A DNA stretch of 64,000 bases from an uncultured Bacilli bacterium (GCA_934141535.1 CAKPCH010000004.1:56755-120754), one strand, 5' to 3'. Shown: positions 20,263 to 48,820, counted from the first letter of the stretch. Notes: a model not told the origin generated them from the letters alone. Program-made: numbers and translations.

Positions 20263-20268
20263 CCTACT

Positions 20269-24532: not shown

Positions 24533-25411
24533 TTATTTACCATGAGGATGGTATTCCTCATAATTTTTCTTTAATTCCTCATGTGATATATGAGTATAAA
24601 TTTGTGTTGTAGATATATCAGAATGACCTAATAATTCTTGAATCGTTCTTAAATCTGCTCCATATTTTAATAAATGGCTTGCAAATGAATGTCTTAATGT
24701 ATGAGGCGATATTTCACTTTTTATATCTTTTTCTTTTGCTATTTTTTTTATTATTTTAAAGAATCCTTGTCTTGTCATGTTTGATCCATGATTATTTATA
24801 AATACATAATCACTATTTCCCTTTATTAATAATAGTGGTCTATATAATTCAATATATTTTTTTAAATATTCTTTAGCATATTCTCCAATTGGTATAATAC
24901 GTTCTTTACTTCCTTTACCAAATGTTCTAATTATATCATCATTAAAATCAATATCTTGCAATTTTACTTTTACTAATTCACTAACACGAAGTCCTGTAGC
25001 ATACATTAATTCTAACATTGCTTTATTTCTATAATCAAATGGTGTTATAAGTTCTATATCAAGTAGTTTTAATACTTCTTCTTCTGTTAATATATTTGGT
25101 AAAGCTTTTCTTATTTTAGGTAGAAAAAGTGAATCACTAACATTATTTGTTATAAATTTTTCTATTACTAAAAACTTATAAAAACTTTTTAGGCAAGATA
25201 CATTTCTAGATATAGATTTTTCATTTAATCCTTCTTCATTTAAATATTTTATATATTTTTTTAAGTCCTCATTTGTTATATCTTTTATATTTTTATTTGA
25301 ATAAAATTTAACAAATTTTTCTAAATCATTTCTATAGGATTCTATTGTATTTGAACTATAACCTTTATCTATTAATAAGTATCTTAAGAATTCTTCTTTT
25401 AAATCATTCAT
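24533..25411 (-). CDS. xerD: Tyrosine site-specific recombinase XerD/XerC (chromosome dimer resolution)
   Basis: C-terminal RHSFASHLL ... LLGHSDISTTQIYTH with the catalytic Y; N-terminal SAM-like core-binding domain. Chromosomal context next to deoB, no phage genes nearby. Confidence 0.8.
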   Translation of the reverse strand: MNDLKEEFLRYLLIDKGYSSNTIESYRNDLEKFVKFYSNKNIKDITNEDLKKYIKYLNEEGLNEKSISRNVSCLKSFYKFLVIEKFITNNVSDSLFLPKIRKALPNILTEEEVLKLLDIELITPFDYRNKAMLELMYATGLRVSELVKVKLQDIDFNDDIIRTFGKGSKERIIPIGEYAKEYLKKYIELYRPLLLIKGNSDYVFINNHGSNMTRQGFFKIIKKIAKEKDIKSEISPHTLRHSFASHLLKYGADLRTIQELLGHSDISTTQIYTHISHEELKKNYEEYHPHGK

Positions 25412-28475: not shown

Positions 28476-29411
28476 TCACTTCCTAATTTTTTTGTTTATC
28501 TTGTTATCTAGTAGTATATTATAAATATTATCATTTAAACTAGGTAAATTAATTTTAAAGCCATTATATGTATAAGATAAATTTTCATCAAATAATTGTT
28601 TTGTATTATTAATTAAAATATCTAATTTACCATTATTCGAATATTTATTATATAAGCAATAGAATAAGAATGTTACTGTCTTTAAATATAAATCTCTAAT
28701 TTCTTTTATTTCTTCTTCACTTTTTAACTTCGTAAGTTTAAAACTTAATTTATCTAAGTTATGTATAAAGTCACATGCATTTACATAATTAGAGTATTTA
28801 CTTATCTCATCTATTAATCCATATATATCCATATTAAAATATAACTTTTCCATAGTATTATGTCCAATTAATAATTCTAGATTATGTGAAAGGAGTGCTT
28901 CTATTTGATAACCTATTTTAGTACCAAAATACCTATTAGTTAAAAGATCTGTGTATCCTTCATTAATTCCTCTACCTATTCTATATTTTTTCTTATAGTT
29001 AATTAAATCAAATCCGCAATATTCAATTCTTTTAATATGATTATAAGTACCTGTTGCCATATGAAGTAATTCATGTTCTATGGCCTCTTCCTCATAACAC
29101 GTAAATTCATCCATTTTAAAACTAATAGTTCCTCCATATATTGAATCATTAACTTTATTATTATATACACAAAAATTAAATTTTTTAAAGTTTGTTTTAA
29201 ATCTATTTAAAGAAATAAGAGGAAAATTAAAACTTATTGTTTTTATAAAATTATTAATCTTATCAATAAATAGTTTTTCTAAATATTCATGTTCTTTATA
29301 TCTATATTTAGAAAACTTGATAGTAGCGCATTTGTAGTTATTTTTCTTTATTAATTTTATCTTATTTTTTCTTTGATAATTAATTATTTTAGTTATATTA
29401 GGTTCTATCAT
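28476..29411 (-). CDS. Hypothetical protein with HExxH motif (putative zinc-metallopeptidase-like)
   Basis: EEAIEHELLHMATG followed by EGYTDLL (possible third ligand); RBS agagga. Confidence 0.35.
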   Translation of the reverse strand: MIEPNITKIINYQRKNKIKLIKKNNYKCATIKFSKYRYKEHEYLEKLFIDKINNFIKTISFNFPLISLNRFKTNFKKFNFCVYNNKVNDSIYGGTISFKMDEFTCYEEEAIEHELLHMATGTYNHIKRIEYCGFDLINYKKKYRIGRGINEGYTDLLTNRYFGTKIGYQIEALLSHNLELLIGHNTMEKLYFNMDIYGLIDEISKYSNYVNACDFIHNLDKLSFKLTKLKSEEEIKEIRDLYLKTVTFLFYCLYNKYSNNGKLDILINNTKQLFDENLSYTYNGFKINLPSLNDNIYNILLDNKINKKIRK

Positions 29412-32430: not shown

Positions 32431-34587
32431 TTATAAATTAGATTTTAAAACTTCAATTACTGGACGAACTCCGTAAGCTCCACTTGAACTTACTTTAGTT
32501 TGATAAGTTTGAGCTACTAAGGTACCACTACCGTTAGAATATCTAGAATATGTAAAACTCACTGCCCAAGCAGCATGATCTGATTTAGTATATTTTGTTA
32601 ATGCACAAGAGGTTGTTGTCCAATAACCCCAAATGATTACATCTGAATTATATAAGCAACCAAAGTTTTTACAATCACTACTTGTTCTATCAAATAGCCA
32701 GCCATATTTACATCCACTTGTATTTCCTTTTTCATCATCATCATTATAATAACAAGTACTACTTGCAGTAGTTGTGTTAGTTTCAAAATAAAAATTACCT
32801 GGTGGATCAGTTACTTCATTAAAAGTTGTATTACCTGTGATTTTAGCTATCTCACCCGCAGAAATAAGCCTTGCCTTATAATCAGCATAATCAATATTGT
32901 ATTTAGATTGACTGGGCTGAGCTGATTGATCTAGTGAATAAGAAGTTGGCGTTTCTACTCCTATCCAAGATGATGTATCAGTTTTTAATTGTTCTAATAC
33001 TTCTTTAGGACCAGTTGTAGAACTTCCACTAGAATTCCATGCTATAGTTGATGTTGTATTATGATCAAGTATTAAATTTAACTTATCTCCACCATCATCA
33101 TTAAATGCATAAAACTTCATACATCCTGATTTTACTCCAGCATTACTTTGTGAATCTGTATAATCTGTACAAGTTGTTCCTTTGTCTACATCAAAATAAA
33201 CTATTTCACCGTTAGAATATGTTTTCACTCCGTTACCAATAGTAATATCACCACTTACATTAGGTATTGTCAATAATTTAGTAGTTGTATCATATATATA
33301 GTCTACATCTTTAGTTAATACTGTATCTCCCATAACAATCTTAGGATTACCTAAATCAATATTTGCTGTATATGTATTACCTTCTATTGCTTCTTTATTA
33401 CAATTAGTACATGTCACTCCATCATATGTTACTTTAAATATTTGTTTATATTCAAAACCTATATTAAAACTTTGAGGTTCACTAGTTACTAAACTATCAT
33501 TTATTCCATCTTTATATTTAATCGTTACATATATTTTTTTAGTTACTCCATTTGTACAGTTATCACCATCACATACTGGTATTACATCATTTTCATTATA
33601 ATTATCTATTGTATAATCTAAATTAGTATCTGAACTTAAAGATGATTTTGATAATGTTATTACTGGGCGAATACCTGGTGATGTAACATAAACGAAGTCG
33701 TTACCCAAATAATTGCTATAATGCACATCCCACACACGAGTATAATCATTAATATAAAGTGAAACAGTCCAATAACTCCAACCTTCTTGAACTGGATGAG
33801 TTGCATTTCTTAAGTAGTCACATAACCATATTGGCAAACCTGAAATAGTTGTATTACTAAATGTTTTACCTGATGCTGTAGCTATCTGATATACGGTTGG
33901 AAAAATTACTTCTACTCCTTCTTTATTAAATATACTTTTTATGTGGCCTAAATAATCTTTTCCTTCTGGCGCATCACTTCCAGTGGTCGCTATATTTTTA
34001 CATGTTTTTCCATTTGCTCCACCATCTGTACACCATTTTATTTTTTGCGGTACATATGAATCCATAAAGTTTTCTTTCATGATTAAACTTACTGTGTCTG
34101 TATTATTTTCTAGAACAAAGAATGTATTTGAATAATTGTCTCCTACTTGGCATGTATATTCATCACCATAATTAAAGTTCCCACTTGGTACATTGCCTGT
34201 AGTTGCTGTTGTTACTGGAGTACATATTGGAGTTTGTGTAAGTGCTCCCATTTTTACATTACCTAAATTAGTTATATCTACTTCATATTTTACATATGAA
34301 TCTTTACTTGGTAATACTACATCTCCAAATATATTAGATACGTTATATTCTTCAGTTCTTGATATAGCACCTCCATTTGTAGAATTTACTTTTATACCAG
34401 TTAATCTTACTGTTTTATCTACTCTTATCATAGCTATATTTTTCATAACTAAGTTTGAACTAAATGAAGCAAATCCTATAGTTAAACTTGTTACTAATAT
34501 AGCACATATTACTATTAAATATTTTGAGATCTTTTTTCTCTTTATAAAACTAAAATTATTAAATCCATAATTATTTTTATGCCTCAT
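32431..34587 (-). CDS. Large secreted/surface protein carrying two copies of a Cys-containing domain shared with the prepilin-like protein at 39402-40388
   Basis: N-terminal signal-anchor; residues ~120-315 are about 70% identical to the C-domain of the 328-aa pilin-like protein (CTPVTTATTGNVP ... FFVLENNTDTVSLIMKENF ... GKDYLGHIKSIFNK ... GIRPVITLSKS). A diverged second copy ends YGVRPVIEVLKSNL. Confidence 0.6.
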   Translation of the reverse strand: MRHKNNYGFNNFSFIKRKKISKYLIVICAILVTSLTIGFASFSSNLVMKNIAMIRVDKTVRLTGIKVNSTNGGAISRTEEYNVSNIFGDVVLPSKDSYVKYEVDITNLGNVKMGALTQTPICTPVTTATTGNVPSGNFNYGDEYTCQVGDNYSNTFFVLENNTDTVSLIMKENFMDSYVPQKIKWCTDGGANGKTCKNIATTGSDAPEGKDYLGHIKSIFNKEGVEVIFPTVYQIATASGKTFSNTTISGLPIWLCDYLRNATHPVQEGWSYWTVSLYINDYTRVWDVHYSNYLGNDFVYVTSPGIRPVITLSKSSLSSDTNLDYTIDNYNENDVIPVCDGDNCTNGVTKKIYVTIKYKDGINDSLVTSEPQSFNIGFEYKQIFKVTYDGVTCTNCNKEAIEGNTYTANIDLGNPKIVMGDTVLTKDVDYIYDTTTKLLTIPNVSGDITIGNGVKTYSNGEIVYFDVDKGTTCTDYTDSQSNAGVKSGCMKFYAFNDDGGDKLNLILDHNTTSTIAWNSSGSSTTGPKEVLEQLKTDTSSWIGVETPTSYSLDQSAQPSQSKYNIDYADYKARLISAGEIAKITGNTTFNEVTDPPGNFYFETNTTTASSTCYYNDDDEKGNTSGCKYGWLFDRTSSDCKNFGCLYNSDVIIWGYWTTTSCALTKYTKSDHAAWAVSFTYSRYSNGSGTLVAQTYQTKVSSSGAYGVRPVIEVLKSNL
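33880..34240. repeat. DNA-level repeat (copy A), about 85% identical to 39640-39990
   Basis: Direct comparison of 34021-34240 with 39770-39990 and of 33880-33990 with 39650-39740 shows long runs of identity (for example cttactgt.tctgtatt.ttttctag.acaaagaatgtatttg). Confidence 0.7.
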
Positions 34588-34696
34588 ATTTAATTCATAT
34601 CCTTCTTTTATAGTTTACCACATATTACTATTTTTTTACATTCATTATTGGTATATTTATATAAAAACTATTCTTCATTATATTATTATAATATCG

Positions 34697-34750
34697 CAAA
34701 AAAAAAAAAAAAACAAGTAATATTTTTGAAAAATTAAAAATTTACTTGTT
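34697..34750 (-). terminator. Terminator-like hairpin plus T16 tract downstream of the SASP gene and upstream of the large surface-protein gene
   Basis: On the minus strand: caagtaa-N21-ttacttg inverted repeat, then 16 consecutive T (A16 on plus at 34697-34712). Confidence 0.5.
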
Positions 34751-34759
34751 TATAATTAC

Positions 34760-34963
34760 TTATTTAATTTTATAATTATTTATATTTTGATAATATTGTT
34801 TTCCTAAATTAACTAGTCTTTTAGTCATTTCTCCACCAACACTACCATTTAATCTACTTGAAGTATCAGGACCTAGTTCTACACCAAATTCTCGTGCTAT
34901 TTCATATTTTAAATTTTCTATAGCTTGTTTAGATCCAGGAACTACTAAAGAATTATTAGTCAT
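34760..34963 (-). CDS. Small acid-soluble spore protein, alpha/beta type
   Basis: [40 protein letters not shown] is the canonical alpha/beta SASP signature; 67 aa; RBS aggtga. Confidence 0.9.
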
Positions 34964-35003
34964 GTTATCACCTCATTATTATTATTTACTTATATTTAAA
35001 TAT

Positions 35004-35033
35004 TAGTATGAGAATTTTTTCCAATTAATATAC
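35004..35033 (-). promoter_or_regulatory. SigmaG/F-type forespore promoter for the SASP gene at 34760-34963
   Basis: On the minus strand: GTATA, 18-nt spacer, CATACTA (matches the GnATA / CAnnnTA consensus), about 45 nt upstream of the ATG. Confidence 0.5.
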
Positions 35034-35175
35034 TAAATATTGTTAAAATAGAAATATCTACTACTAATACTCTAAAATTATTAAGCCACAATAATAATGG
35101 AATCAGAAATTCTACTATCCATTTTCTTTCTTTTTTATAAAAAAAGATAGCAAGTAATCGCTATCCATTTTCTAA

Positions 35176-35382
35176 CTATTTAGTATAAGTGTTTCCACCT
35201 AAATGTTGTTCACCCATTTGAACTAATCTTTTAGTGATTTCTCCTCCAACTGAACCGTTAGCTCTTGAAGTAGCATCAGGACCCATAGTAACTCCTAATT
35301 CACTAGCTATTTCATATTTCATCTTATCGATTGCTTGTTTAGCTCCAGGTACAACAAATTTACTATTTAATTTGTTATTCAT
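35176..35382 (-). CDS. Small acid-soluble spore protein, alpha/beta type (second copy)
   Basis: [40 protein letters not shown]. Start re-placed at MNNKLNSK, which has a perfect aggaggtgaaatt RBS; the ORF track starts at an upstream TTG. Confidence 0.9.
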
Positions 35383-35404
35383 AATTTCACCTCCTGTACA
35401 TTTA

Positions 35405-35433
35405 TAATTTGTGTACAAAGAGGATTTTTATAC
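35405..35433 (-). promoter_or_regulatory. Putative sigmaG/F-type promoter for the SASP gene at 35176-35382
   Basis: On the minus strand: GTATA, 17-nt spacer, CAAATTA. Confidence 0.4.
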
Positions 35434-35458
35434 AAAATTTATTTGGTAATTTTTTCTT

Positions 35459-36628
35459 CTATAATAAATCACTTTTTTCTTGATTTAAATTTTTTATTAT
35501 TTCTACATTTTCTATACATTCATCTATTAATGCTTCATAATCAAATAATGATTCATAATATAAACATTTATTTATATTTGGATTTATTACAGGATGTGTT
35601 GGTAAAAATATAGTACAACAATCTTCATAAGGTAATATACTTGTTTCATATGTATTTATTTTATTTGCTATATCTATAATTTCCAATTTATCCATGCATG
35701 CAACAGGTCTAATTACAGGAAAATTGGTAACACTATTAATAACACCCATACTAGTTAAAGTTTGACTTGCTACTTGTCCAATACTTTCTCCATTAATTAT
35801 TACTTTGCATTTATGTTTTTTAGCTAACCTTTCAGCTATTCTATACATCATACGTCTCATAATAGTAATAACATAAGTATCTTCTACATTTTTATAAATT
35901 GCTTCTTGTAATTTAGTAAAAGGAATTACATTTACTGTTATTCCAAAAGAATACTCATTAATAATACTAGCTAATTTAATAACTTTATTTTTTGCTTCTA
36001 TACTTGTATGAGGTGGAGATTCAAAATATAAACATTCTAGATCTACTCCTCTTTTAAGTGCTAAATAACCTGCTACTGGAGAATCAATTCCACCACTTAG
36101 CATTAACATTCCTTTGCCTTGAATACCAACAGGATATCCACCAATTCCTTTAATTTCATTAGTATATATAAAAGTACCTTCAACTCTTATTTCAATAACT
36201 ACTTCTAAATCTGGATTTTTAACGTCTACTTTACAAGGTATAGCTCTTAAAACTGCACCACCTATTATATTATTTAATTCCATACTATGAACTTCAAAAG
36301 ATTTATCTGCTCTTTTAGTATGAATTTTAAAAGTATTAAAATTTTCCTTTTTTAATAAATCTATAACACAATTTTTAATATCTTCAATATTATTATTTAC
36401 TTTAGTAGCAATTACTATTCCATGTATACCAAATACTTTTTTAAGTGCTTCTACTATATGTTTTTCATCATCACATTCAATATACATTCTAACTCTATCA
36501 TACTTCATTTTATATTCATAATTTTTTAAAGCATTTCTTATATTATTAGCAAGTAATTTTATAAATGTTTTTCTATTTGCTTTTTTAGTTGTAAGTTCTC
36601 CATATTTAATTAATATTAATTTATTCAT
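35459..36628 (-). CDS. thiI: tRNA uracil 4-sulfurtransferase
   Basis: THUMP-containing N-terminus and the PP-loop SGGIDSPVAGY; about 390 aa. Start at MNKLI after the agggtga RBS. Confidence 0.85.
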   Translation of the reverse strand: MNKLILIKYGELTTKKANRKTFIKLLANNIRNALKNYEYKMKYDRVRMYIECDDEKHIVEALKKVFGIHGIVIATKVNNNIEDIKNCVIDLLKKENFNTFKIHTKRADKSFEVHSMELNNIIGGAVLRAIPCKVDVKNPDLEVVIEIRVEGTFIYTNEIKGIGGYPVGIQGKGMLMLSGGIDSPVAGYLALKRGVDLECLYFESPPHTSIEAKNKVIKLASIINEYSFGITVNVIPFTKLQEAIYKNVEDTYVITIMRRMMYRIAERLAKKHKCKVIINGESIGQVASQTLTSMGVINSVTNFPVIRPVACMDKLEIIDIANKINTYETSILPYEDCCTIFLPTHPVINPNINKCLYYESLFDYEALIDECIENVEIIKNLNQEKSDLL

Positions 36629-36711
36629 ACTTTTCACCCTTCACCTAGTAAATTATATCTTACTTTTAAAAAAAAGTAAATTAAAAAACAAGATTAAACT
36701 TGTTTTTAAGA

Positions 36712-36981
36712 TTATTTTTTAAATAGATTACTGTTAATCATATTATTAATATTTTTATTCATTAATACAAAGTTATCTTTTCTACCTCTTACGTTATTAC
36801 AATTAGGTATAAATGTATTAGATGAAGTTTTAATATTTGGCAAATTCTCACGTGCTTTCATTAAAACTAAATTATCACGACTATGACTTATATTTTTCTT
36901 TTTTAAATTATTTATATCGTTATTATTATGTATATAAATATTTCTTTCATTAAAGCCATCAGTATTAAAATTCATTAACAT
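36712..36981 (-). CDS. Hypothetical small Asn-rich protein
   Basis: ORF with an agggtga RBS before the internal ATG (MLMNF...). The ORF-track start would overlap the upstream gene by about 95 nt, so the shorter form is preferred. Confidence 0.3.
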   Translation of the reverse strand: MLMNFNTDGFNERNIYIHNNNDINNLKKKNISHSRDNLVLMKARENLPNIKTSSNTFIPNCNNVRGRKDNFVLMNKNINNMINSNLFKK

Positions 36982-37792
36982 ATTCACCCTTATATAAGCA
37001 ATACTCATTATATTTACATAATGTATCTTTATATGTATATTTGTATATCTTCTTATCATTTTTACTTAAAGAAGCAAATACATCATTTAAATTATCTTCA
37101 CTTATAAATGTACCACTCGTTAATTCCTGAGTATATGAAGCATCTTTATATATTTTATAAGTATTACCTTCTACCTTAGCAAATCCTACATAATTATAAA
37201 TAATAATATCATCATTTTCATATTGTGCTTTTATAAATTGTGTTAAATCATAATAAGCAACATTTTTGCTTTTTGAAGTACATAATCCTTCATATATAAA
37301 ACTTTTTAAAGAACTATTATAAGTCCAAGTACCAGGATATATACTAGAATCCTCTGGAACATAAAAACTATCTAATGTATATTTAATATCTTTACCTAAA
37401 ATATTTTGAATTCTAAGAGTTAAATATACATCACTAATAATTTTTGGTGTTGTAGTACATGAAACGCGTCCACTATAACTTTTTATATTAACTCCTTCTA
37501 TGCCTAAGAAAGCATTATATAATATATCATTATTTGTCATGTCTGAAACAGTAAATGTATTATTTAAATAATATGTATTACTTTCATATATACTACTTCT
37601 AAACTTAGGAGTATGTATACTATCTAAAATCTCTTGTGTTACTTCTTTTTTCTCATCATTATTTTTTTCTTCTTTATCTATTATTTTTGGCATTTTTAAT
37701 TTTTCTATATAGTTATATAAACTAGGTAAACAAAATACTAGTACTATAACAACTCCAAAACATATAAATATAAACTTATTATTTTTCTGCAC
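36965..37792 (-). CDS. Hypothetical membrane-anchored protein
   Basis: N-terminal TM segment (FIFICFGVVIVLVFCL), then a Lys/Glu-rich linker and a globular domain; no motif recognised. Confidence 0.4.
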   Translation of the reverse strand: MQKNNKFIFICFGVVIVLVFCLPSLYNYIEKLKMPKIIDKEEKNNDEKKEVTQEILDSIHTPKFRSSIYESNTYYLNNTFTVSDMTNNDILYNAFLGIEGVNIKSYSGRVSCTTTPKIISDVYLTLRIQNILGKDIKYTLDSFYVPEDSSIYPGTWTYNSSLKSFIYEGLCTSKSKNVAYYDLTQFIKAQYENDDIIIYNYVGFAKVEGNTYKIYKDASYTQELTSGTFISEDNLNDVFASLSKNDKKIYKYTYKDTLCKYNEYCLYKGEYVNEF

Positions 37793-37802
37793 ACTATTCA
37801 CC

Positions 37803-38792
37803 CTATATTAAACTTTTTCTAACAAAAACGTTTATCCCTTCTTTTATATATATTAAAATATCAGTACCTATTGTAAAATGAATGAAACCTAATCCTTGAA
37901 TTACTAAATCTTCATCACTATTTATTTTAAATTTGTAGCACTTCAATCCATTAAAGTCACTATTTATTTTATAACTTCTATTTATTTTTAAAGCATTTGA
38001 TATATAGTATGTCATGTTTGTCTTAGATAATATATCTATTTTAAATATATTATCTATAATAAAACTTTGTGGACACTTAACTTGATATGTTATAGGTTTT
38101 ATTTCTTGTTTAGGTATTATTCTCTTTAAAGTCTTATCATCTACATAATTTATTATATCACCTTCATCAAGCAATCCTGGTGTATCTATAAGTGTTAATG
38201 AATCTGAAAGCTTTATATCAATACTATCAATAGTAGTAGATGGCATATTACTTGTAGTAATATATGAATCAGATGAAGTATAATTATATATTAATTTATT
38301 AATTAATGTACTTTTACCTGAATTAGTAAATCCTACTACGTATACCCTATTACTTTTTTTATATTTATTAATTTTATTAAATAATTCATCAATATTATAA
38401 TTTTTCTTACTACTAACAACTATACTATCTATAAAATTAATATTTAAATATTTAAAATAGGCTTTTAATGATTCATCATAGCAAGAACGTGGTATAATGT
38501 CTCTTTTAGTTAATACTAATAAAATATCATTATTTAAATACTTTTTAATATCTATTAAATCTTTACTTATATTAAATAAATCAACTACTAATACAACTAA
38601 ATCTTTACTATTATTAATGCTTTTTAATATATCAATGTATTCTTCATTAGTAGCGTTTACTTTAGATATTTCATTATAATTTCTAATTCTAAAGCATCTT
38701 TGACATAGTTTATTAGTTATATCTTTTGTATAGCCAATTTCTAATTCATTTAAATTTTGGAGTACTACTCCACATCCTATACATTTACACAT
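37803..38792 (-). CDS. yqeH: Ribosome biogenesis GTPase YqeH (circularly permuted GTPase with N-terminal zinc finger)
   Basis: N-terminal CIGCGVVLQ ... CQRCFRIRNYN zinc-ribbon; permuted G-motifs (LTKRD precedes GFTNSGKST ... DTPG). Confidence 0.75.
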   Translation of the reverse strand: MCKCIGCGVVLQNLNELEIGYTKDITNKLCQRCFRIRNYNEISKVNATNEEYIDILKSINNSKDLVVLVVDLFNISKDLIDIKKYLNNDILLVLTKRDIIPRSCYDESLKAYFKYLNINFIDSIVVSSKKNYNIDELFNKINKYKKSNRVYVVGFTNSGKSTLINKLIYNYTSSDSYITTSNMPSTTIDSIDIKLSDSLTLIDTPGLLDEGDIINYVDDKTLKRIIPKQEIKPITYQVKCPQSFIIDNIFKIDILSKTNMTYYISNALKINRSYKINSDFNGLKCYKFKINSDEDLVIQGLGFIHFTIGTDILIYIKEGINVFVRKSLI

Positions 38793-39306
38793 AGTATCTT
38801 CCTTTTGTAAATAGGCTTTTATCTCTTAATGATTTTTGAATATGTCTTTCTTTTATTCTTTTTAATTTAGCAAAAGGAAATTCTTTTTTATTTATTTGAT
38901 CTAAAAGAATAGTAGTTATTCCTATTGTATTACCACATACTACATCATCCATCATAGAATCTCCTATCATAGCTATTTCATCAAGTCCAAAACCACTTTT
39001 TTTAATAAGTTCACTAATAGATTCAATATGTGGTTTTCTAGCACTATAAATATAATCTACTTTAAGTTCTTCATGAAAAGGTTTTACTCTTCTTTTAATA
39101 CTATTGGATGCTATAAAGATTTTAAAACCTTTATTTTTTAAATCTTTAAATAATTTTTTAGTTTCTTCTCTTGGTAAACTTTCAGTAATTGGTACTAATG
39201 TATTATCAAGATCGAATATTAAGCATTTTATTCCTCTTGTAATTAACATATCATAATCTATTTTGTATATATTTTCTTGATAAATATCAGGAACATAAAT
39301 TTCCAT
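38785..39306 (-). CDS. yqeG: HAD-IIIA phosphatase YqeG
   Basis: CLIFDLDNTLVP motif I, SNS motif II, GDSMMDD motif IV; immediately upstream of yqeH as in the Bacillus yqeG-yqeH operon. Confidence 0.7.
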   Translation of the reverse strand: MEIYVPDIYQENIYKIDYDMLITRGIKCLIFDLDNTLVPITESLPREETKKLFKDLKNKGFKIFIASNSIKRRVKPFHEELKVDYIYSARKPHIESISELIKKSGFGLDEIAMIGDSMMDDVVCGNTIGITTILLDQINKKEFPFAKLKRIKERHIQKSLRDKSLFTKGRYYV

Positions 39307-39401
39307 CTATTACACCTCACTAACCTAATACTAATAATATTTTATCACAATAAATTATACTTATCAATTAAAAAAGAAAAACTATTGAAATTTTCAATAG
39401 T

Positions 39402-40388
39402 TTAACCTAACATAGATTTTGAAATTGTTATAACTGGACGAAGACCATAGTTGTCAGAATTGTTGACTTCGTCGCGATTGCTAAAGTAACCATTATAGTA
39501 AACGCCCCACGCGTAGTAAGAGTAATCATCAGTAGGAGTTGTTGTCCAATATCCATATACTGGATGGGTTGTATCTTTTAAATTATCATATAACCATATT
39601 AGTAAAGCTCCTCCTTTATTGCCCGCTGCTATATATATTTGATCTTTTGTTGGAAAACTTACTTCTACTCCATTTTTATTAAATATACTCTTTATATGTC
39701 CTAAATAATCTTTGCCTTCTACAGCATTACTTCCTATTGCTGTTATATTTTTACAAGTTGTATTGATTATGCTTCCATCTGTACACCAAGCTACTCCTGA
39801 TGGCACATATGAATCCACAAAGTTTTCTTTCATGATTAAACTTACTGTATCTGTATTGTTTTCTAGTACAAAGAATGTATTTGTGTAACTATCTCCAACC
39901 TTGCATGTGTATTCATCACCATATGCATAACTTCCTGTTGGCACGTTCCCTGTTGTTGCTGTAGTTACTGCTGTACATACTGGATTGAATTGCTCTATTT
40001 TTCCATTATTATATGAATATGCTGCATCTGATACCTTAAAATTTGAAATACCTGTTATTTTCCCATTCGATAATAATATCTTACTACCTACATCTGGAGT
40101 TATTCCATTAATTTCTATTTTAATATAATCAGTAGTTCCATCACATTTTAATCCTTCACTTTCTACTACACATTCTGTTGGATTAAAGTTTGCCCCTGGA
40201 TGTACCATATTATATCTAGCTATCTCATTTTTTACTTGATCTAAATATAATTCTATACTTCTTTCTGTTGAATTATTTTTACTATCCTTTATTATATTTA
40301 ACACTACTGGTGTAGCTATTAATGCGATAATTGCAAGTATTACGATGACTGCTAATAACTCTATTAATGTAAAACCTTTATTTTTCAT
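39402..40388 (-). CDS. Type IV prepilin-like protein with a Cys-containing C-terminal globular domain (paralogous to 32431-34587)
   Basis: MKNKGFTLIELLAVIVILAIIALIA is a class III (prepilin peptidase) leader/methylation motif; C-terminal domain CTAVTTATTGNVP ... YGLRPVITISKS. Confidence 0.7.
   Translation of the reverse strand: MKNKGFTLIELLAVIVILAIIALIATPVVLNIIKDSKNNSTERSIELYLDQVKNEIARYNMVHPGANFNPTECVVESEGLKCDGTTDYIKIEINGITPDVGSKILLSNGKITGISNFKVSDAAYSYNNGKIEQFNPVCTAVTTATTGNVPTGSYAYGDEYTCKVGDSYTNTFFVLENNTDTVSLIMKENFVDSYVPSGVAWCTDGSIINTTCKNITAIGSNAVEGKDYLGHIKSIFNKNGVEVSFPTKDQIYIAAGNKGGALLIWLYDNLKDTTHPVYGYWTTTPTDDYSYYAWGVYYNGYFSNRDEVNNSDNYGLRPVITISKSMLG
39640..39990. repeat. DNA-level repeat (copy B), about 85% identical to 33880-34240
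   Basis: See copy A; the same conserved blocks in the same order on the same strand. Confidence 0.7.
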
Positions 40389-40439: not shown

Positions 40440-40486
40440 AAAAACAAGTAATATTTTCAAAAATTCACTTGAAAATTACTTGTATA
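40440..40486 (-). terminator. Terminator-like inverted repeat upstream of the prepilin-like gene, related in sequence to the element at 34697-34750
   Basis: On the minus strand: caagtaa-N24-ttacttg followed by tttttcttttg. The left arm plus loop (aaaacaagtaatatttt.aaaaatt) matches the 34714-34740 element at 25 of 26 positions. Confidence 0.45.
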
Positions 40487-40903
40487 TTATCTTTTATATC
40501 TTCTAATTTTTTCTACATCACTTCTATGTAGTACTTCATCATTTTTTATATTAAATTTTAACATACTATTAAATTCTTTTATAGCTTCATTAGTATTACA
40601 ACTATACATAACATCATCTTCTACATTATATAATGAATAAATTTTATTTACTTCTAGTACTCCTGTTTTTTCATTTACTCTAGATGAATATATTATAACT
40701 TTACCATTTTTATAAGCTATATTAATAGGATCTAATTCTTTATAATATCTTCCTATAAATTTTACTACACCATTTATTCTAGTAGTTACATCATAAAATC
40801 TATTTCCTCTTTTTTCATATTCTTGAATAGTTACACTATCATTTTTATTTATCATAGCTGTTATTGAATATGGCACTGGTTTGCATTCGTTTATATCGTT
40901 CAT
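40487..40903 (-). CDS. Hypothetical protein
   Basis: 138-aa ORF with RBS aaggagag; no motif recognised. Confidence 0.4.
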   Translation of the reverse strand: MNDINECKPVPYSITAMINKNDSVTIQEYEKRGNRFYDVTTRINGVVKFIGRYYKELDPINIAYKNGKVIIYSSRVNEKTGVLEVNKIYSLYNVEDDVMYSCNTNEAIKEFNSMLKFNIKNDEVLHRSDVEKIRRYKR

Positions 40904-41911: not shown

Positions 41912-42120
41912 TAAATCACCAAATTTAGTATAACACATTTTTTATTATTTGTTAACCCGTTTGCTTTTTTTTACACCAATCATACTTAAGCGATTACCTA
42001 ATAACCTTGTATAACAAAAAATAGATTAATTCAATTGTAATTTAAGATGTCAATATTGATTAGCATATCAATAGAAGTGACTTATTTAATAGAAATTTTT
42101 AACAGTCTCCACCTAACAAT

Positions 42121-43371
42121 TTATAATGACCAATAAATTACATCACTCTCAAATTTATAATCTTTGTATATTGAATACAAATCTAATATTATTTTTTTAG
42201 AACATTTTTTATTAAAGTAGCTCATTATTTTTTCTTTATTCATACTTCTGTATTTATCATGTGGAACTGCGATTATCAGTATATCCAAATCTTGCAATTT
42301 CTCGTAATTATTAAAATAGGTATTTTTGTCAAATAACATATAATCCGAAATCCTACAATCATAATTTTGTTTTTTTAACTCACGATAGATTATATCAACC
42401 TTAGTATTTCTAACATCATCTGAATTTGCCTTATAAGAATAACCTAAAATTCCTACCTTAATATTGTTATTGTTTTTTATATCAGCTACCATCTCATTCA
42501 AACTATTTACTATAAATAAAGGAATATTCTCGTTTGTTTTTCTTGCTTGTTTTACTATATTCATATTATATCCATATTTGTTTCCTAAATCAATAAGATA
42601 ATACGGATCGATGCCAATACAATGACCTCCAACTAAGCCTGGAAGAACGTCAACAAAATTCCACTTTGTTTTTGCGGTTTCTAAAACATCTATTGTTGAT
42701 ATCTTCATTAAATGGCACAATTGTGAGACTTCATTAACAAATGCAATATTTAAATCCCTCTGAGAATTTTCAATAATTTTTGACAGTTCTGCGACTTTTA
42801 TGCAACTAGCTCTATACAAACTAACATTAGATATTAAACTGTATAATTTTTCAACTTGGTCTAAAACAAAATTATTTTGCGCTGAGATAACTTTAGTAAC
42901 AGAATTAATAGTATGAAGATTATCAGATGGGTTTATTCTTTCAGGAGAATATCCAACAAAAAAATCGACATTATTCTTTAACCCACTATATTTTTCTAAT
43001 AATGGAATGCATATATTTTCTGTTACGCCAGGATAATAAGAAGATTCAAATATTATTAGTGAATTTTTTTTAAAATTATACCCTATTGTTCTACAGGCTT
43101 CAATAACAAATTCCAAATTTGGTCTATTATTATCGTATACAGGCGTTGGGACTGTAACTATGATTGCATCTGACTTGCCAATACATTTGTCATTATAAGT
43201 ATAAACAATATTACAGTTTTTATTATTTTTGCTTAAAGTTTTAATTTTATCATTATCAATATCATATGCAAACACTTTTTTAGTTTTAGCAAATTCATTT
43301 ATTAAAGGTTGTCCAACATATCCAACACCAACTACTGTTATTGTAAAATTATTATCTCCTATTTCTTTCAT
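42121..43371 (-). CDS. NDP-sugar (UDP-glucose/UDP-N-acetylhexosamine) 6-dehydrogenase family protein
   Basis: N-terminal ITVVGVGYVGQPL Rossmann motif and a catalytic-Cys context (GGHCIGIDPYY); 416 aa. Confidence 0.8.
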   Translation of the reverse strand: MKEIGDNNFTITVVGVGYVGQPLINEFAKTKKVFAYDIDNDKIKTLSKNNKNCNIVYTYNDKCIGKSDAIIVTVPTPVYDNNRPNLEFVIEACRTIGYNFKKNSLIIFESSYYPGVTENICIPLLEKYSGLKNNVDFFVGYSPERINPSDNLHTINSVTKVISAQNNFVLDQVEKLYSLISNVSLYRASCIKVAELSKIIENSQRDLNIAFVNEVSQLCHLMKISTIDVLETAKTKWNFVDVLPGLVGGHCIGIDPYYLIDLGNKYGYNMNIVKQARKTNENIPLFIVNSLNEMVADIKNNNNIKVGILGYSYKANSDDVRNTKVDIIYRELKKQNYDCRISDYMLFDKNTYFNNYEKLQDLDILIIAVPHDKYRSMNKEKIMSYFNKKCSKKIILDLYSIYKDYKFESDVIYWSL

Positions 43372-43372
43372 A

Positions 43373-44191
43373 TTATCCCATCACTTTCAACAAAGGAGCA
43401 AGATACTTCTCACTTCCATAATTAATACCATTATAATCTTTAGCATTTCCATGATAATCCGTCCCTGCCGTTTTTATACAATCGATAAAAAGACTGTTTG
43501 TATCCAAATAATTACTAAATTCAATTGAATTTTTAGGATTAATGACTTCCAATCCATTTAATCCATAGTTTAAAAAAACTTTTACAATTGATTCAAATTC
43601 AATAATAGATGAACATTGATTTAAAAGTGTCATGGGATGAGCTAAAACAATTATAGAATTAAGTGATTTCAATATGTCAATTGTTTCTTTAACTTGTAAT
43701 TTCTTTTGAACTATATATGACTGACTTCTAGAACCAATAAAGTTTTTATAAATAAAATCAACATCATCAACATTAAATTTTTCTAATAATATTTTGGCTA
43801 TAATCCGTTTATTTAACAGATCTTTTGTGTACTTTTTTATGTCATTATCATCAATAACAATTCCATATTTATATTCTAATATTTTTATAGCAGCCCTACA
43901 AATGTAATCATTTTCTAACTTTATTTGTCTTAAATATCCATTAAGTTTTTTTAAATCATTAACTCCATATGCTAACAAATGAATACTTTTGTTATTATAA
44001 TTACAATCAATTTCAATACCGTTTATTATAGTTATATTATTGTATAATGATGTTACACTCTCGCATATGTTATGATCAGTAAAAGATAAATACAATATAT
44101 TATTGTCTAATGCTGTTTTAATTAAATCGTCTCTACTTGAAATACCATCACTTAATGTACTATGAACATGTAAATCAAAATTTATAGACAT
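43373..44191 (-). CDS. PHP-domain metal-dependent phosphoesterase
   Basis: FDLHVHSTLSDG N-terminal PHP motif, internal ... AHP ... and GTDYHG. Start placed at MSINFDLHVHS. Confidence 0.7.
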   Translation of the reverse strand: MSINFDLHVHSTLSDGISSRDDLIKTALDNNILYLSFTDHNICESVTSLYNNITIINGIEIDCNYNNKSIHLLAYGVNDLKKLNGYLRQIKLENDYICRAAIKILEYKYGIVIDDNDIKKYTKDLLNKRIIAKILLEKFNVDDVDFIYKNFIGSRSQSYIVQKKLQVKETIDILKSLNSIIVLAHPMTLLNQCSSIIEFESIVKVFLNYGLNGLEVINPKNSIEFSNYLDTNSLFIDCIKTAGTDYHGNAKDYNGINYGSEKYLAPLLKVMG

Positions 44192-44630
44192 TTTTACACA
44201 ACCTTTCATTTAATTCCCAAAGTGCATTTTTATTGCTATCCCATTCAAACATTTTCATTGCATCACTATAATTAACCCATTTAAAAGATTTATGTTCTTC
44301 AGATATTTTTATTTTGGCATCATCCACACAAACACCAAATGAATATTCTTTTACGATATATGTTTCTTTTTCAAACTTTGTACCTGAAATATTAATTGAA
44401 GGCATGCTAGCAAATGATGATAATTTTACTAAATTTGTGTTGTATGGAATATTACCTTCTTCATACATTTCCCTTCGTGCAGCCTGTTCTATACTTTCAC
44501 TGTCCTCTACTCCACCAGCTATTCCTTGCCATACATTTAAATCCTCTCTTAAAAATAAACAATATTCAATACAATTTAATTTTGTATTCATTCTATATGG
44601 AATAACTAAAACTTGTATTGGCTTCCTCAC
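44175..44630 (-). CDS. Nudix hydrolase, NudB-like (dihydroneopterin triphosphate pyrophosphatase-like), copy 2
   Basis: Nudix box GGVEDSESIEQAARREMYEEGNI (Gx5Ex7REUxEExGU). Layout and C-terminal ALWELN segment resemble NudB; about 45% identical to 48370-48819. Confidence 0.65.
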   Translation of the reverse strand: MRKPIQVLVIPYRMNTKLNCIEYCLFLREDLNVWQGIAGGVEDSESIEQAARREMYEEGNIPYNTNLVKLSSFASMPSINISGTKFEKETYIVKEYSFGVCVDDAKIKISEEHKSFKWVNYSDAMKMFEWDSNKNALWELNERLCKNVYKF

Positions 44631-45585
44631 TATTAACCTCCTTAATGATATTTATAACACTATTTTTCTTACTTAATAGCCACTTTATCATTTCAAATTT
44701 GTATTTTGCATAACTAATATCATCATCGACATCAAGACAGTAAAGGCTATTTAAGGATATATAGTTAAATAAATTCAAGCCATCTAATAAGTATTCATTA
44801 GTAATATAATAAACATTTTTATATCCCTCAAGAAAATTTTTAATATTATATAAAATTTTTGTATCATCAAAATTTTTATCATAACATATCATACTAATTG
44901 CACGATATATTTCATATTGTAAAGGAAAAATGCAAGTTTGGTCTAAATCTAGACACACTAATTTATTTGTTTTGATAATGTTATCAAGGTAAAAATCGCC
45001 GTGCACAATTTTATTGTTATATTTTAAATAAATTTGTTCAATACTCCTAAAGTCAACTTTTTTTAATAGTTTTAACTTTGACCTTAAAATTTGAATTGCC
45101 TCTGTGTTACCTGTTTTTACATGCAAACTAATTAAATTATTAATTCTATCTATATTGGGAGTGGTCATATTTAAATTTTTTGTATCATAGTTTTTGATAT
45201 TTTTAATAATAGATGAATTTAGGGTTTTATGTATATTCCCAAGCAACTCTCCTAGTTTATACTGCTCTTGAGAACCCAATCTTTGTTTATTCAAATGTAG
45301 ACCATCAATATATTCATATAAAACGTAATATTTATCATTATATGTAAAATATGTTCTACCATCTATTGTAAAAATAATCTTGGCTGATAAATTATTGCTC
45401 GATAAAATATTTTGAACAACATTTATAAACTCAAGCCTATTTAACTTATCAACAGCCATTTCTTTTAATAGATATTTCCTATCTTTTGTAGTTAATATCC
45501 ACTTTTTGCAAGCATATCCTAATGATAAAGGCTGTTTTTCTATTATAAAAATATTATAAAAATCATTAATAATTTTATTTTTCAT
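44593..45585 (-). CDS. APH-fold small-molecule kinase (aminoglycoside/choline/sugar-kinase phosphotransferase family)
   Basis: HGDFYLDNII (HGD catalytic loop) and DLDQTCIFP (DxD metal-binding). RBS gggaga; overlaps the DegT stop by 11 nt. Confidence 0.65.
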   Translation of the reverse strand: MKNKIINDFYNIFIIEKQPLSLGYACKKWILTTKDRKYLLKEMAVDKLNRLEFINVVQNILSSNNLSAKIIFTIDGRTYFTYNDKYYVLYEYIDGLHLNKQRLGSQEQYKLGELLGNIHKTLNSSIIKNIKNYDTKNLNMTTPNIDRINNLISLHVKTGNTEAIQILRSKLKLLKKVDFRSIEQIYLKYNNKIVHGDFYLDNIIKTNKLVCLDLDQTCIFPLQYEIYRAISMICYDKNFDDTKILYNIKNFLEGYKNVYYITNEYLLDGLNLFNYISLNSLYCLDVDDDISYAKYKFEMIKWLLSKKNSVINIIKEVNSEEANTSFSYSI

Positions 45586-46744
45586 TTAATTCTCCCAAAA
45601 CTTCATATAATGATTTAACAAATGAATTACATATATATTGATTATCTTTTTTAGACATGTTGAAATGAATGGGTAAGTTTATTATTCTCCCACCTAATTC
45701 ACGCGAAATGTTTTTATATTTAGTATCTATATGTTCATCAACATATTTATGAATCATAAATGTGGGTTCATTAGCAACGGTAGTTTTTATTTGATACTTT
45801 TCTTCTAAAATTTTCATAATTTTATTTCTGCTGTTTCTAGTAAACATATCATTTAATATGATAGTATAATAGGTATAAATATGATAGTAAATTTCATCAA
45901 AAACTGGCAAAGAAAAATATTTGCTATACTTTTTTAACATATTATTTCTTTGAAGTGCTACTTTACGTCTTTTTTTGTTATATTTATCAATTTTTTTTAA
46001 TTGTGATATACCCACGCTGGATTGAACTTTTGATAATTTATAATTCGAGCCCCAAGCATCCATTTTTCTTCCACCAAATTCTCTTCTTTTTTTCATTTTT
46101 TCATAATATTCATAATTATTCGTTAAAATCATACCGCCTTCTCCAAGAGTGGATATGTTTTTTTTGCTTTGAAAGCTAAAAACTGATATATCTCCCAAGC
46201 AACCGACTTTCTTTTTATCATAAGATGCACCACAACATCTAGCGACATCTTCTATTATAACGATATTAGAATCATATTTTTTTATAATATTAATAATTTT
46301 ATTCATATCAGCAGATACACCATTCATATGTGTAACAACAACTGCCCTGGTATTTTTTGTTAAATTATTTTTGATTGAATTTGCCGAAATATTTAAAGTT
46401 TTATCATCAACATCACATAATACTAATTTTGCTGGAGTTGACAATATTGATAAATGTGTACCATAGAAATTTATTGCAGATGATATGACTTCATCATTTG
46501 GTTTTAATTCAAGAACTTGCATTGCAATATCAATGCCACTATTACAACCGTTTACAGATAATGCATATTTTTTCCCTATATATTCTGAAAATTTTTTTTC
46601 AAATTCTACGCGATAATCAATGGTATCACATACTTTCCAGTTGCATAAACTATGCATCGACTTAATAACATATATATAGTCAGTTATGGTATATTTAAAA
46701 TTTGGAGGTTGAGACTGATAACTTTTTTTCACTATTAAACACAT
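45575..46744 (-). CDS. DegT/DnrJ/EryC1/StrS-family PLP-dependent sugar aminotransferase/dehydratase
   Basis: YALSVNGCNSGIDIAMQVL, DEVISSAINF, and the SFQSKKNIS region (PLP-binding Lys in SxxxxK context); 389 aa. Confidence 0.75.
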   Translation of the reverse strand: MCLIVKKSYQSQPPNFKYTITDYIYVIKSMHSLCNWKVCDTIDYRVEFEKKFSEYIGKKYALSVNGCNSGIDIAMQVLELKPNDEVISSAINFYGTHLSILSTPAKLVLCDVDDKTLNISANSIKNNLTKNTRAVVVTHMNGVSADMNKIINIIKKYDSNIVIIEDVARCCGASYDKKKVGCLGDISVFSFQSKKNISTLGEGGMILTNNYEYYEKMKKRREFGGRKMDAWGSNYKLSKVQSSVGISQLKKIDKYNKKRRKVALQRNNMLKKYSKYFSLPVFDEIYYHIYTYYTIILNDMFTRNSRNKIMKILEEKYQIKTTVANEPTFMIHKYVDEHIDTKYKNISRELGGRIINLPIHFNMSKKDNQYICNSFVKSLYEVLGELNEK

Positions 46745-46784
46745 CCTTTTAAAATTTAAACAATTTTACTATTTAGCCTATTAT

Positions 46785-47756
46785 TTAGTTACTATAATTA
46801 GAAAATATGTTGCTTTTATGCACTAATATTTTTGCGGTAGATAAATAAAAATCACTTTGATGGTCATTAAATTTCAATAATTCATTCAGAAAAAATTGTT
46901 CCTTAGATATAGCTGAAATGTGTTGTCTTTCTATTTGCGATATAATTTCCTCTACATCCAACAACTCATTAAAAACTTGCATGCTATTTTTTTTGTCATA
47001 ACATGTAACAATAATTTCAGAAAGTTCTGCTTTTGAAACGAATTTACAATTAAAGGCATTAAGTAAATTAAAAACAGTCAAATTGAGTTTTTTGGAATCC
47101 AGGCAATTGTCAGCATTTTTTTGATATAATTCTTTATCAATATACGGTAATATAAGGTTCTTAAGATTATAATTTAATTCTAATGTTGGATATCTTAAAC
47201 CTAGATTAGAAGGAAAACCATATACAATTAATTTTCCATTATAATATCTTAATCCTATTCTATCATTTCCCATATAATCATATTTTTTGGATAATAAATA
47301 AAATAATAAATTTGTCGTTTTACCACTACCACTATTGCCAATAAAAACAGTTGCTTTATTTGTTTTTTTATTTACCACTGATGCCCCATGAACAAAATAA
47401 ATTCCAATATCTTCATAATATTTGGCAAAAATATCTATTATTATTCTCTTTAGATTAAGACAATGATCTGCATTAAAATGATCATAAATAAATTTAATAT
47501 TATTTTTTTTATTTGAAAAAATCAATGTATTTGGCGCCATAATAAAACATTTATTTTTAGAATATTCAATTGTTTCTTCAGCAACAATATCAAGAGTAAC
47601 TAATTCAGTTGGAATGTTTTTCTCATTATAATCACTAATAACAAAACACCCATTAAAATGTTGAGACATTTTTGTATTAAGATTGGGTACACTTGTTTTA
47701 ATTATTATTTTTAGCCCATCTTTAAATATTTCATAGCAGTTCATTTTAAGCTTCAT
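46785..47756 (-). CDS. HPr kinase C-terminal-domain-like P-loop protein
   Basis: HGASVVNKKTNKATVFIGNSGSGKTT resembles the HprK/P C-domain (H-G ... GxSGxGKS/T). Confidence 0.4.
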   Translation of the reverse strand: MKLKMNCYEIFKDGLKIIIKTSVPNLNTKMSQHFNGCFVISDYNEKNIPTELVTLDIVAEETIEYSKNKCFIMAPNTLIFSNKKNNIKFIYDHFNADHCLNLKRIIIDIFAKYYEDIGIYFVHGASVVNKKTNKATVFIGNSGSGKTTNLLFYLLSKKYDYMGNDRIGLRYYNGKLIVYGFPSNLGLRYPTLELNYNLKNLILPYIDKELYQKNADNCLDSKKLNLTVFNLLNAFNCKFVSKAELSEIIVTCYDKKNSMQVFNELLDVEEIISQIERQHISAISKEQFFLNELLKFNDHQSDFYLSTAKILVHKSNIFSNYSN

Positions 47757-47795
47757 TCCTTTCTATTCCATATATAAGCACACAAACAAGAAAAA

Positions 47796-48362
47796 CTACA
47801 AATGTTTTATTGTGTCCAACTTTGCCATCGACATATTACTTTGTGGCAATATTATATACTCATTATTAGGGTTAGATTTTATATAAGTTATATTATATTC
47901 TTTAAACAAATCCATATATTTCAAACTACGTTTTATACTTTCTAAATACTCTATATCTCCACGAGTTGTATCATACCAGTCTTTTTTTTTAACTCTTTCA
48001 AGTAAAACTTCCGTATCTGCTGTAACATATATTATATCAATACTAATGTCATTTAACTTTTCTTTAATTGTTTTAATAAAATTACCTCTTATGTCTGAAT
48101 TCTGTCCTTTGATCAAAATAATTATATCATTTTTTTGTGAACACAACAATATAATGTCATCTATCATTTCAATTCGTTTTTCAGTAATATTGTCAGTTTT
48201 ATTTTTTGATATATATTCAATACTTTTATCGAGAATAATTGTTTTTTTCAAATCAATATTTAAATTAGAATTTAATTTTTCATCTTTGCCATTATAGATG
48301 TACTTAATTAATGTTTCTTTGCCACTAGCACTACTGCCAAAAAACCAAATTAATCTATTCAT
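47796..48362 (-). CDS. Small P-loop kinase (NMP/sugar kinase-like, AAA_33-type)
   Basis: N-terminal WFFGSSASGKETL Walker A; 188 aa. Confidence 0.5.
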   Translation of the reverse strand: MNRLIWFFGSSASGKETLIKYIYNGKDEKLNSNLNIDLKKTIILDKSIEYISKNKTDNITEKRIEMIDDIILLCSQKNDIIILIKGQNSDIRGNFIKTIKEKLNDISIDIIYVTADTEVLLERVKKKDWYDTTRGDIEYLESIKRSLKYMDLFKEYNITYIKSNPNNEYIILPQSNMSMAKLDTIKHL

Positions 48363-48369
48363 TGCAATA

Positions 48370-48819: not shown

Positions 48820-48820
48820 G

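Follow-up and report, generated by a model that had tools for sequence, protein, structure and literature searches.

A variable C-type-lectin-fold module shared by a predicted modular type IV pilin and a putative surface scaffold protein in uncultured gut Bacilli

Modular pilins probably carry their bulky module at the tip of the filament (Raynaud et al. 2021; PMC8179133), and Dataset S1 of the same study lists pilins combined with DUF1566 (IPR012902-IPR011460), seven proteins with one copy and two with two copies. The N-terminal domain of an immunoglobulin A (IgA) protease, annotated as DUF6273, is C-type-lectin-like and similar to Lcl (PMC12237041, PMC12402451). The Taf fibres of archaea are TasA-like and assembled by donor-strand exchange, and DUF5305 (TafG) is the proposed partner of their SipW-like signal peptidase (PMC11821415, PMC12337348). 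Surveys of diversity-generating retroelements (DGRs) mention GspG-type pilin domains among rare targets. Elements of these systems were compared with a 64,000-nucleotide (nt) stretch of DNA, hereafter the window, from an uncultured Bacilli bacterium (GCA_934141535.1 CAKPCH010000004.1:56755-120754), in which two genes, encoding a 718-amino-acid (aa) protein (32431..34587) and a 328-aa protein (39402..40388), share a module of the C-type-lectin (CLec) fold. The smaller protein is a predicted modular type IV pilin whose head is hypervariable between strains, and the larger is a putative signal-anchored surface protein with two CLec-type modules, which has a near-identical relative (P0066) and an ortholog-like one (P0059). 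Both genes, and the protein segments given below, are on the minus strand.

The domain common to the two proteins was confirmed by BLASTP, in which aa 114-317 of the 718-aa protein and aa 129-327 of the 328-aa protein were identical at 123 of 208 positions (59%, E 5e-64), giving a shared module of approximately 200 aa. At the DNA level the copies are 81.5% identical over 340 bp (33896-34231 versus 39649-39984; blastn), with ungapped repeats of 210 nt at 81% and 141 nt at 79%, and the figure of about 85% given in the original prediction was therefore slightly high. A recent duplication, as then proposed, does not fit these values, the copies differing by many synonymous and non-synonymous changes at all bases. 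Amino acid identity between them is mosaic, reaching 85-95% around TFFVLENNTDTVSLIMKEN and GKDYLGHIKSIFNK in the centre of the N-terminal two thirds and just 25-40% in the last third. These long identical blocks, together with four Cys residues nearly invariant across 32 family members and likely to form two disulfides (predicted as Cys4-28 and Cys68-78 of the domain), show that the similarity is not one of low complexity. The last 98 residues of the 718-aa protein (aa 621-718) also matched the pilin head region (E 8e-06, BLASTP), and a hidden Markov model (HMM) of the family gave partial matches in its C-terminal third at aa ~491-529 and ~648-718, confirming the diverged second copy described there. 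The same HMM, run on all six frames, found no module in other open reading frames (ORFs) of the 64-kb window.

The pilin head (aa 135-328; 39405..39986) folds independently when modelled in isolation (pLDDT 95), and the predicted structure is similar to the solved DUF6273 domain. DUF6273 (PF19789) matched the last ~50 residues only, scoring 19.1 bits in the 718-aa protein, 18.5 in the 328-aa protein and 19.8 in the pilin head alone against a Pfam gathering threshold of 23.5, whilst Lcl_C (DUF1566, PF07603) scored 16-17 bits for the window copies against 34.9. Among 32 family members, DUF6273 was matched at E<=0.01 in 13 and Lcl_C in six, and three relatives pass the DUF6273 cut-off, namely P0065 (36.2 bits), P0068 (28.0 bits) and the pilin of locus L028 (27.4 bits). 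A Foldseek search of viral models returned DUF6273 and DUF1566 phage proteins; PDB sequences, searched with a profile built from the head alignment, yielded nothing at E<=10. The sub-threshold Pfam scores, the relatives that pass the cut-off, the IgA protease papers cited above and the Foldseek results together identify the module as a divergent DUF6273-type CLec fold of the DUF6273/Lcl_C superfamily and not a new fold. Its initial description as belonging to no named family is corrected accordingly, the named relatives being themselves uncharacterised. Across the family, variability is greatest at domain positions 151-180, which lie between the invariant YW(T) and RPVIT and just before the latter.

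The N-terminal part of the 328-aa protein (aa 1-134; 39987..40388) has the features expected of a pilin module, with a leader (MKNKG|FTLIE), a hydrophobic alpha-1N, a long alpha-1 helix and a small beta-sheet. The leader, MKNKG|FTLIELLAVIVILAIIALIATPVV, is basic and ends in Gly, as class III signals do, with Phe at +1, Glu at +5 and a hydrophobic stretch of ~20 residues behind it, and both N_methyl (PF07963; 33.1 bits versus a cut-off of 21.2, E 3.5e-08) and TIGR02532 (33.7 bits versus 16.3, E 2.1e-08) matched. In the full-length AlphaFold2 model (pLDDT 88) a helix at residues 8-62 and strands at 72-134 are followed by a separate globular head, a lollipop architecture. In a modular pilin, as defined by Raynaud et al. 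(2021), a pilin module is joined to an extra structured module with no particular tie to type IV pili; the 328-aa protein is built in this way, and its head module also occurs on non-pilin carriers. Sequence and model thus describe a canonical modular type IV pilin.

The carrier in the 718-aa protein is of a different kind. Its first 45 residues (34453..34587) comprise a basic N-terminus, a hydrophobic helix and the motif IGFASFSSNL, read here as a probable signal anchor or cleavable signal, and this motif is conserved in P0059, P0064, P0009 and P0200. The first half of a small beta-sandwich follows (aa 46-118; 34234..34452), 43% identical (E 1e-23) to aa 4-104 of P0200, and then the first CLec head, of the pilin subtype (aa 119-318; 33634..34233; family HMM i-E 1.1e-78). 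The second half of the sandwich and a beta-rich linker (aa 319-455; 33223..33633), a region without a Pfam match, precede a diverged and enlarged CLec-like C-terminal module (aa 456-718; 32434..33222; BLASTP E 8e-06 and partial HMM matches) that ends in YGVRPVIEVLKSNL and is kept as one unit in P0059, P0068 and P0081. P0200 is a stand-alone protein of 172 aa that aligns to aa 18-114 and again to aa 320-365 of the 718-aa protein (aa 108-155 of P0200 for the latter, E 4e-08), that is, on both sides of the first head, which shows the head to be inserted into one of the sandwich loops. Among NCBIfam and Pfam models for signal types or folds none matched this carrier, TasA, camelysin and SipW-signal models included, and NCBIfam likewise gave no match for the 718-aa protein, its scaffold or P0064. 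A homolog search with the scaffold from which the insert had been artificially deleted recovered two proteins only, P0009 and P0200, and phmmer with the uninterrupted scaffold of P0064 returned noise alone. P0059 has a scaffold like that of the 718-aa protein, mostly identical by eye in the alignment. The proposal of a lectin-like head on two different N-terminal anchors was thus upheld, one being a type IV prepilin leader with its pilin module and the other a signal-anchored beta-sandwich scaffold.

The family extends well beyond the window. With just the head as query, a word-indexed search gave 58 proteins, nearly all N_methyl proteins of 310-340 aa from ENA metagenomes, and an exhaustive representative search with the whole pilin gave 8222 at E<=1e-3, of which 1674 reached E<=1e-10, counts that take in matches to the pilin module alone. 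In a collection of 200 proteins (P0001-P0200), 129 consist of a pilin module with one head and seven of a pilin module with two heads, whilst nine have other N-termini, either the FA(S/A)FSS scaffold or a pilin-like MKNNKGFAISS type, with one to four heads. This last type constitutes a third carrier, seen in P0065, P0068, P0081, P0091 and P0107, in which the N-terminus (MKNNKGFAISSVVYAMLILFLGL) is pilin-like without Glu at +5 and two to four CLec heads stand in tandem; in P0068 and P0081 the heads are followed by the diverged C-terminal module of the 718-aa type. GTDB species representatives with the family are metagenome-assembled genomes (MAGs) labelled uncultured Bacilli, Tenericutes, Erysipelotrichaceae or Bacillota. 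They were obtained from the gut of humans (Hadza, Nepal), rabbits, sheep and mice, and a single MAG often holds several of the loci. At the best GTDB representative loci the pilin is 37-45% identical, and a neighbouring housekeeping gene, which matches the AlaRS-family gene of L030, shows ~77-80% DNA identity. The window itself, of ~23% G+C, is 99.98% identical to a Hadza gut contig (ERZ4559904 NODE_882). Related loci also carry small pilins of 138-159 aa in tandem arrays of two or three (L027:9989-11677; L023:9989-10969; L046:2058-2938, among housekeeping genes), with (near-)identical first ~45 residues and differing C-termini, which could be major-pilin variants.

Sliding-window identity against the conspecific contigs L086, L087 and L088 revealed a hypervariable island in the pilin head (39450..39900), where nt identity falls to 59-87% between flanks of 99-100%, a contrast of the kind to be expected in an adhesin or a surface antigen. 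The position of the pilin gene is fixed in all three, between the genes for a 138-aa protein and a GT4 protein on one side and yqeG on the other. Between strains the pilin module is under strong purifying selection (dN 0.003-0.01, dS 0.13-0.19 for non-synonymous and synonymous divergence, respectively), and in the rest, the head, the alleles differ by dN 0.24-0.35 and dS 0.54-0.74. Mismatches occur at all three codon positions, the third being most frequent, over ~450 bp, and small indels are also present. An identical pilin protein was found on at least 22 metagenome contigs, among them four from four different samples. Divergent alleles inside near-identical flanks indicate recombination, and the persistence of old alleles in a clonal background possibly reflects balancing selection.

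Variation at the 718-aa gene is one of presence and absence. The gene, its upstream region and a terminator-like hairpin form a cassette (32432..34756; blastn junctions at 34757 and 32431) that is present in the window and in L081 and absent, with the same junction, from L082, L087 and L088, where smc directly follows the gene for a small acid-soluble spore protein (SASP). In a cassette-free strain the SASP gene has a different terminator. The AT-rich hairpin and T-run upstream of the 718-aa gene (34711..34751, minus strand; repeat family D9; fold -10.1 kcal/mol, z -3.7) is matched by a hairpin and T-run upstream of the pilin gene (40444..40483, minus strand; -12.4 kcal/mol, z -2.4). The two are similar in sequence (ACAAGTAA...TTACTTGT; 74% identity over 54 nt), and a duplicated or mobile unit may have included this hairpin element. 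A third variable segment lies on the other side of the pilin gene, an ~8.2-kb block (41948-50177) encoding a UDP-sugar dehydrogenase, a PHP protein, two NUDIX proteins, an APH-like kinase, a DegT aminotransferase, two unknowns and a radical-SAM (SPASM) protein. As it is absent from L086 and mostly absent from L087, the glycosylation locus beside the pilin gene is a strain-variable island and not a fixed partner.

Exchange or conversion of modules between carriers, suspected originally for the two window copies, is real in the family. At the insertion site used in the 718-aa protein P0059 has a head of another subtype, and an extra head, of the pilin subtype, stands at its end. P0009, a scaffold protein whose first ~115 residues are 97% identical to the N-terminus of the 718-aa protein, has a head 97% identical (194/199) to that of P0014, a pilin.

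These data are best accommodated by a ligand-binding CLec head that is exported and displayed on two carriers, serving adhesion or surface recognition and diversified by recombination, a reading we hold with moderate confidence. Prepilin peptidase would cut the 328-aa protein after Gly5, and the small pilin module would enter a type IV filament by means of its hydrophobic alpha-1 helix. The head, on its short linker, would then be exposed, most probably at the tip, where the bulky modules of other modular pilins are proposed to lie. The 718-aa protein, signal-anchored or secreted, would place two heads at the cell surface, one in the sandwich loop and the diverged one C-terminally. Filament incorporation, tip location, adhesive function and the existence of a ligand are what we infer here; the heads would most likely be adhesins or surface recognition modules for a glycan or protein ligand in the gut, with the loop and strands from the invariant GYWT to the invariant RPVIT as the main determinant of their specificity. 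Their diversity would arise by homologous recombination among many paralogous heads, through allele replacement, swaps between carriers and gain or loss of whole genes.

Several observations weigh against this account. Genes for a type IV filament ATPase, platform protein and prepilin peptidase were not found in the 64-kb window, and crude Walker-A motif searches of 91 sources found no assembly machinery near pilin paralogs in related loci, the sole match being FtsK; the tandem arrays of small pilins likewise had no machinery adjoining. This weakens the case for incorporation into a filament in the source organism. Both window copies of the module score below the Pfam gathering thresholds for DUF6273 and Lcl_C, and the EPN/QPD and WND motifs with which animal C-type lectins bind Ca2+ and sugar are absent from the head sequence. 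The close relatives have no known ligand, and the DUF6273 domain of the IgA protease is without assigned function (PMC12237041, PMC12402451). Finally, the near-identity of the P0009 and P0014 heads rests on short contigs of 1.5-1.7 kb that might be chimeric, though two independent assemblies agree.

A more specific reading concerns the nature of the larger carrier. At locus L089 a DUF5305 gene (L089:39-1166, 66 bits) lies 11 bp upstream of the P0059 gene (L089:1177-3894), and this neighbour, the G-F-A-S-F-S-S motif and the stand-alone P0200 together suggest a subunit of a donor-strand fibre. DUF5305 and SipW-like peptidase genes were not found in the window, and that the sandwich of the 718-aa carrier may be a subunit of a TasA/Taf-like fibre is offered as a tentative lead. 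It follows as a possible though rather unlikely extension that head cassettes are exchanged between a type IV pilus and a TasA/Taf-like fibre served by a SipW-like peptidase and a DUF5305 partner, with the sandwich as a subunit. If true, uncultured gut Bacilli of small genome size would have a combinatorial, strain-specific adhesin repertoire, in a group in some lineages of which DGRs hypermutate type IV pilin heads.

The variability could alternatively be one of escape, the heads being mainly variable surface antigens or receptors under pressure from phage or host IgA. A pilus tip exposed to the outside could act as a phage receptor or be targeted by the immune system, and the variation would then not reflect differing adhesive specificities. 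Old discrete alleles are indeed maintained in a clonal background, strains differ in whether they have the 718-aa gene, the closest solved relative of the head is carried by an IgA-cleaving surface enzyme of a gut Bacillota species, and DUF6273 heads are common in phage receptor-binding proteins. Such pressure is compatible with adhesion and not exclusive of it, however; a CLec head on a pilin would be an expensive decoy, and no phage or antibody interaction was identified here. As the main explanation it is unlikely.

Lower still stands a role for the 328-aa protein as a minor pseudopilin of a competence (Com) or secretion-type filament, with a head engaged in uptake or secretion, for example by capture of DNA or a substrate. 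Many Bacilli have a Com pilus alone, the pilin genes of this family are orphan and scattered, and the N-terminus of the 328-aa protein shows weak, partial matches to the ComGC, ComGF, ComGD and GspG models. Those matches, however, are far under the cut-offs and limited to the common leader and alpha-1 region, and no known DNA-binding CLec representative appeared among the fold matches. The many pilin paralogs in related genomes, including the tandem arrays of small pilins as possible major subunits, fit a true pilus better, and a Com or secretion filament is considered quite improbable.

A role of both proteins at the spore surface, as components of coat, exosporium or appendage, had been thought conceivable from their position and was not borne out. 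The 718-aa gene abuts two SASP genes in a window that carries sporulation genes, the pilin gene of locus L014 is ~2 kb from SASP genes, and in the same species group the gene for the head-bearing pilin P0010 (L093:10001-12812) is directly upstream of spoVAC-spoVAD-spoVAEB, with CotE and YlbD genes nearby. The adjacency to SASP genes is not conserved, however, because the cassette is absent in several conspecific strains, in which the 718-aa gene is evidently dispensable, and other paralogs are found among unrelated housekeeping genes. The promoter-distal SASP gene of the window (34760-34963) has a clear sigma-G-type consensus (GTATA-N18-CATACTA), and the same regex search found a sigma-G consensus before spoVAC of the related locus. 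No sigma-E, -F, -G or -K consensus was found upstream of the 718-aa and pilin genes with this simple regex, which is crude in AT-rich DNA, and the P0010 gene has a perfect sigma-A-type promoter of its own (TTGACA-N17-TATAAT) and no sigma-G consensus. A scan for consensus promoters over 32.3-40.6 kb gave fewer sites than shuffled controls and is thus uninformative in 77% A+T DNA. Type IV pilins, moreover, need an assembly machine in the cytoplasmic membrane. With the 718-aa gene missing from strains and no sporulation-sigma consensus before it, the spore-surface role was rejected, and the crudeness of the regex is the reason for still according it a very small probability.

CLec heads are classic DGR targets, and the fetched loci were therefore scanned for motifs of DGR-type reverse transcriptase (RT). 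Three related MAG loci have full DGR cassettes, consisting of template repeat (TR), bAvd and RT, immediately following type IV pilin genes, and the variable repeat (VR) is in the CLec heads of these pilins. The order is pilin, bAvd, RT at L013:9995-13624; an N_methyl+DUF6273 pilin at L028:140-3883 has two VRs with 7/7 and 11/13 mismatches at TR adenines; and at L050:9989-13962 the count is 16/16. The TR/VR stretches of all three are far richer in G+C than the host DNA. In these relatives the VR lies just before a GVRA/GSRAVV motif, the same place as the most variable segment of the window head, and they show which head surface matters. By analogy the window pilin head might itself be diversified by a DGR, and against this stand several results. 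A crude RT-motif scan of ORFs found no DGR-type RT in the 64-kb window, and among the repeats detected in 32-41 kb none resembled a TR for the variable segment. The changes that separate the two window copies are not specific to adenine, the allelic variation includes indels and is most frequent at third codon positions over the ~450 bp, and the alleles are stable across samples. A DGR origin of the window copies and of the allelic variation was therefore rejected as extremely unlikely. No paper treating diversity-generating retroelements and type IV pilins together was found in the searched literature. Least credible, on a par with a DGR at this locus, is that the module is not a binding head and instead an enzyme of the FGE-sulfatase/EgtB/PvdO branch of the same fold.

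Other features of the window were noted in passing. The tandem alpha/beta-type SASP genes (34760-34963 and 35176-35418) are ~70% identical in DNA (repeat family D2). Three ORFs without a Pfam or NCBIfam match occupy the same positions in conspecific contigs, encoding an N-terminally anchored protein of 278 aa between yqeH and thiI (36965-37801), the 138-aa protein upstream of the pilin gene (40487-40903) and a 311-aa protein between smc and holA (28476-29411). Genes are oriented on the plus strand to ~19.5 kb and on the minus strand from ~20.3 kb, and the cumulative GC skew peaks at the same place; the region ~19500-22000 therefore looks like one of converging replication, and the terminus of replication may lie inside the window. 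By eye, the product of the ORF at 24533-25411 resembles a Xer-type tyrosine recombinase.

The findings bear on how low-GC gut Bacilli, known only from metagenomes, may attach to the host or to other microbes. The family described here, type IV pilins carrying lectin-fold heads, is large and runs to thousands of representatives, most of them unannotated. No other spot in the otherwise clonal genomes varies as much as the heads, which in some relatives are the targets of a mutagenic retroelement, a pattern that points to the pilus tip as the main determinant of specificity in these organisms. DGR-targeted type IV pilins are barely mentioned in the literature searched. At ~190 aa and a pLDDT of 95 the heads are small, well-folding domains suited to ligand screening, and they add structural context for the uncharacterised DUF6273 domain of the IgA protease of Thomasclavelia ramosa.

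Compared with the described systems, the 718-aa carrier alone may resemble TasA/Taf fibres, in its N-terminal hydrophobic segment, the G-F-A-S-F-S-S motif and a small beta-sandwich that also exists alone; it differs in that the window has neither a DUF5305 nor a SipW-like gene and that models for TasA, camelysin and the SipW signal gave no match. The DUF6273 domain of the T. ramosa IgA protease (PDB 9qa6; PMC12237041, PMC12402451) is part of an M64 metallopeptidase with a sortase-type anchor and not of a pilin, is larger (~290 aa) and binds a structural zinc. The C-terminal domain of Legionella pneumophila Lcl (DUF1566; PDB 8q4e) belongs to a diderm and sits on a collagen-like trimeric stalk; at ~115-130 aa it is the shorter domain, and it is without the N-terminal beta-hairpin subdomain that bears the YGDEYTC...FFVLE motif in the window head. 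Unlike the CLec variable proteins of DGRs, such as Mtd of Bordetella phage, TvpA of Treponema, the DUF6273 phage tentaclins and the tip adhesins of Bacteroides type V pili, the window genes have no nearby TR, Avd or RT and no adenine pattern, and their diversity looks like that of old alleles shuffled by recombination. The closest counterparts are the modular pilins PilB (vWA) and PilC (lectin) of Streptococcus sanguinis (Raynaud et al. 2021), with which the 328-aa protein has in common a small pilin module (IPR012902), a short linker and a bulky binding module. Here, in contrast, the head is CLec/DUF6273-like and of neither the vWA nor the concanavalin-like type, the gene stands alone at a distance from any pil locus, the head is hypervariable between conspecific strains, and the same head also occurs on a non-pilin scaffold in the same genome. 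The window thus provides a largely unannotated example of the modular type IV pilins, with a head of the CLec adhesin type, distinguished by its behaviour in the population.

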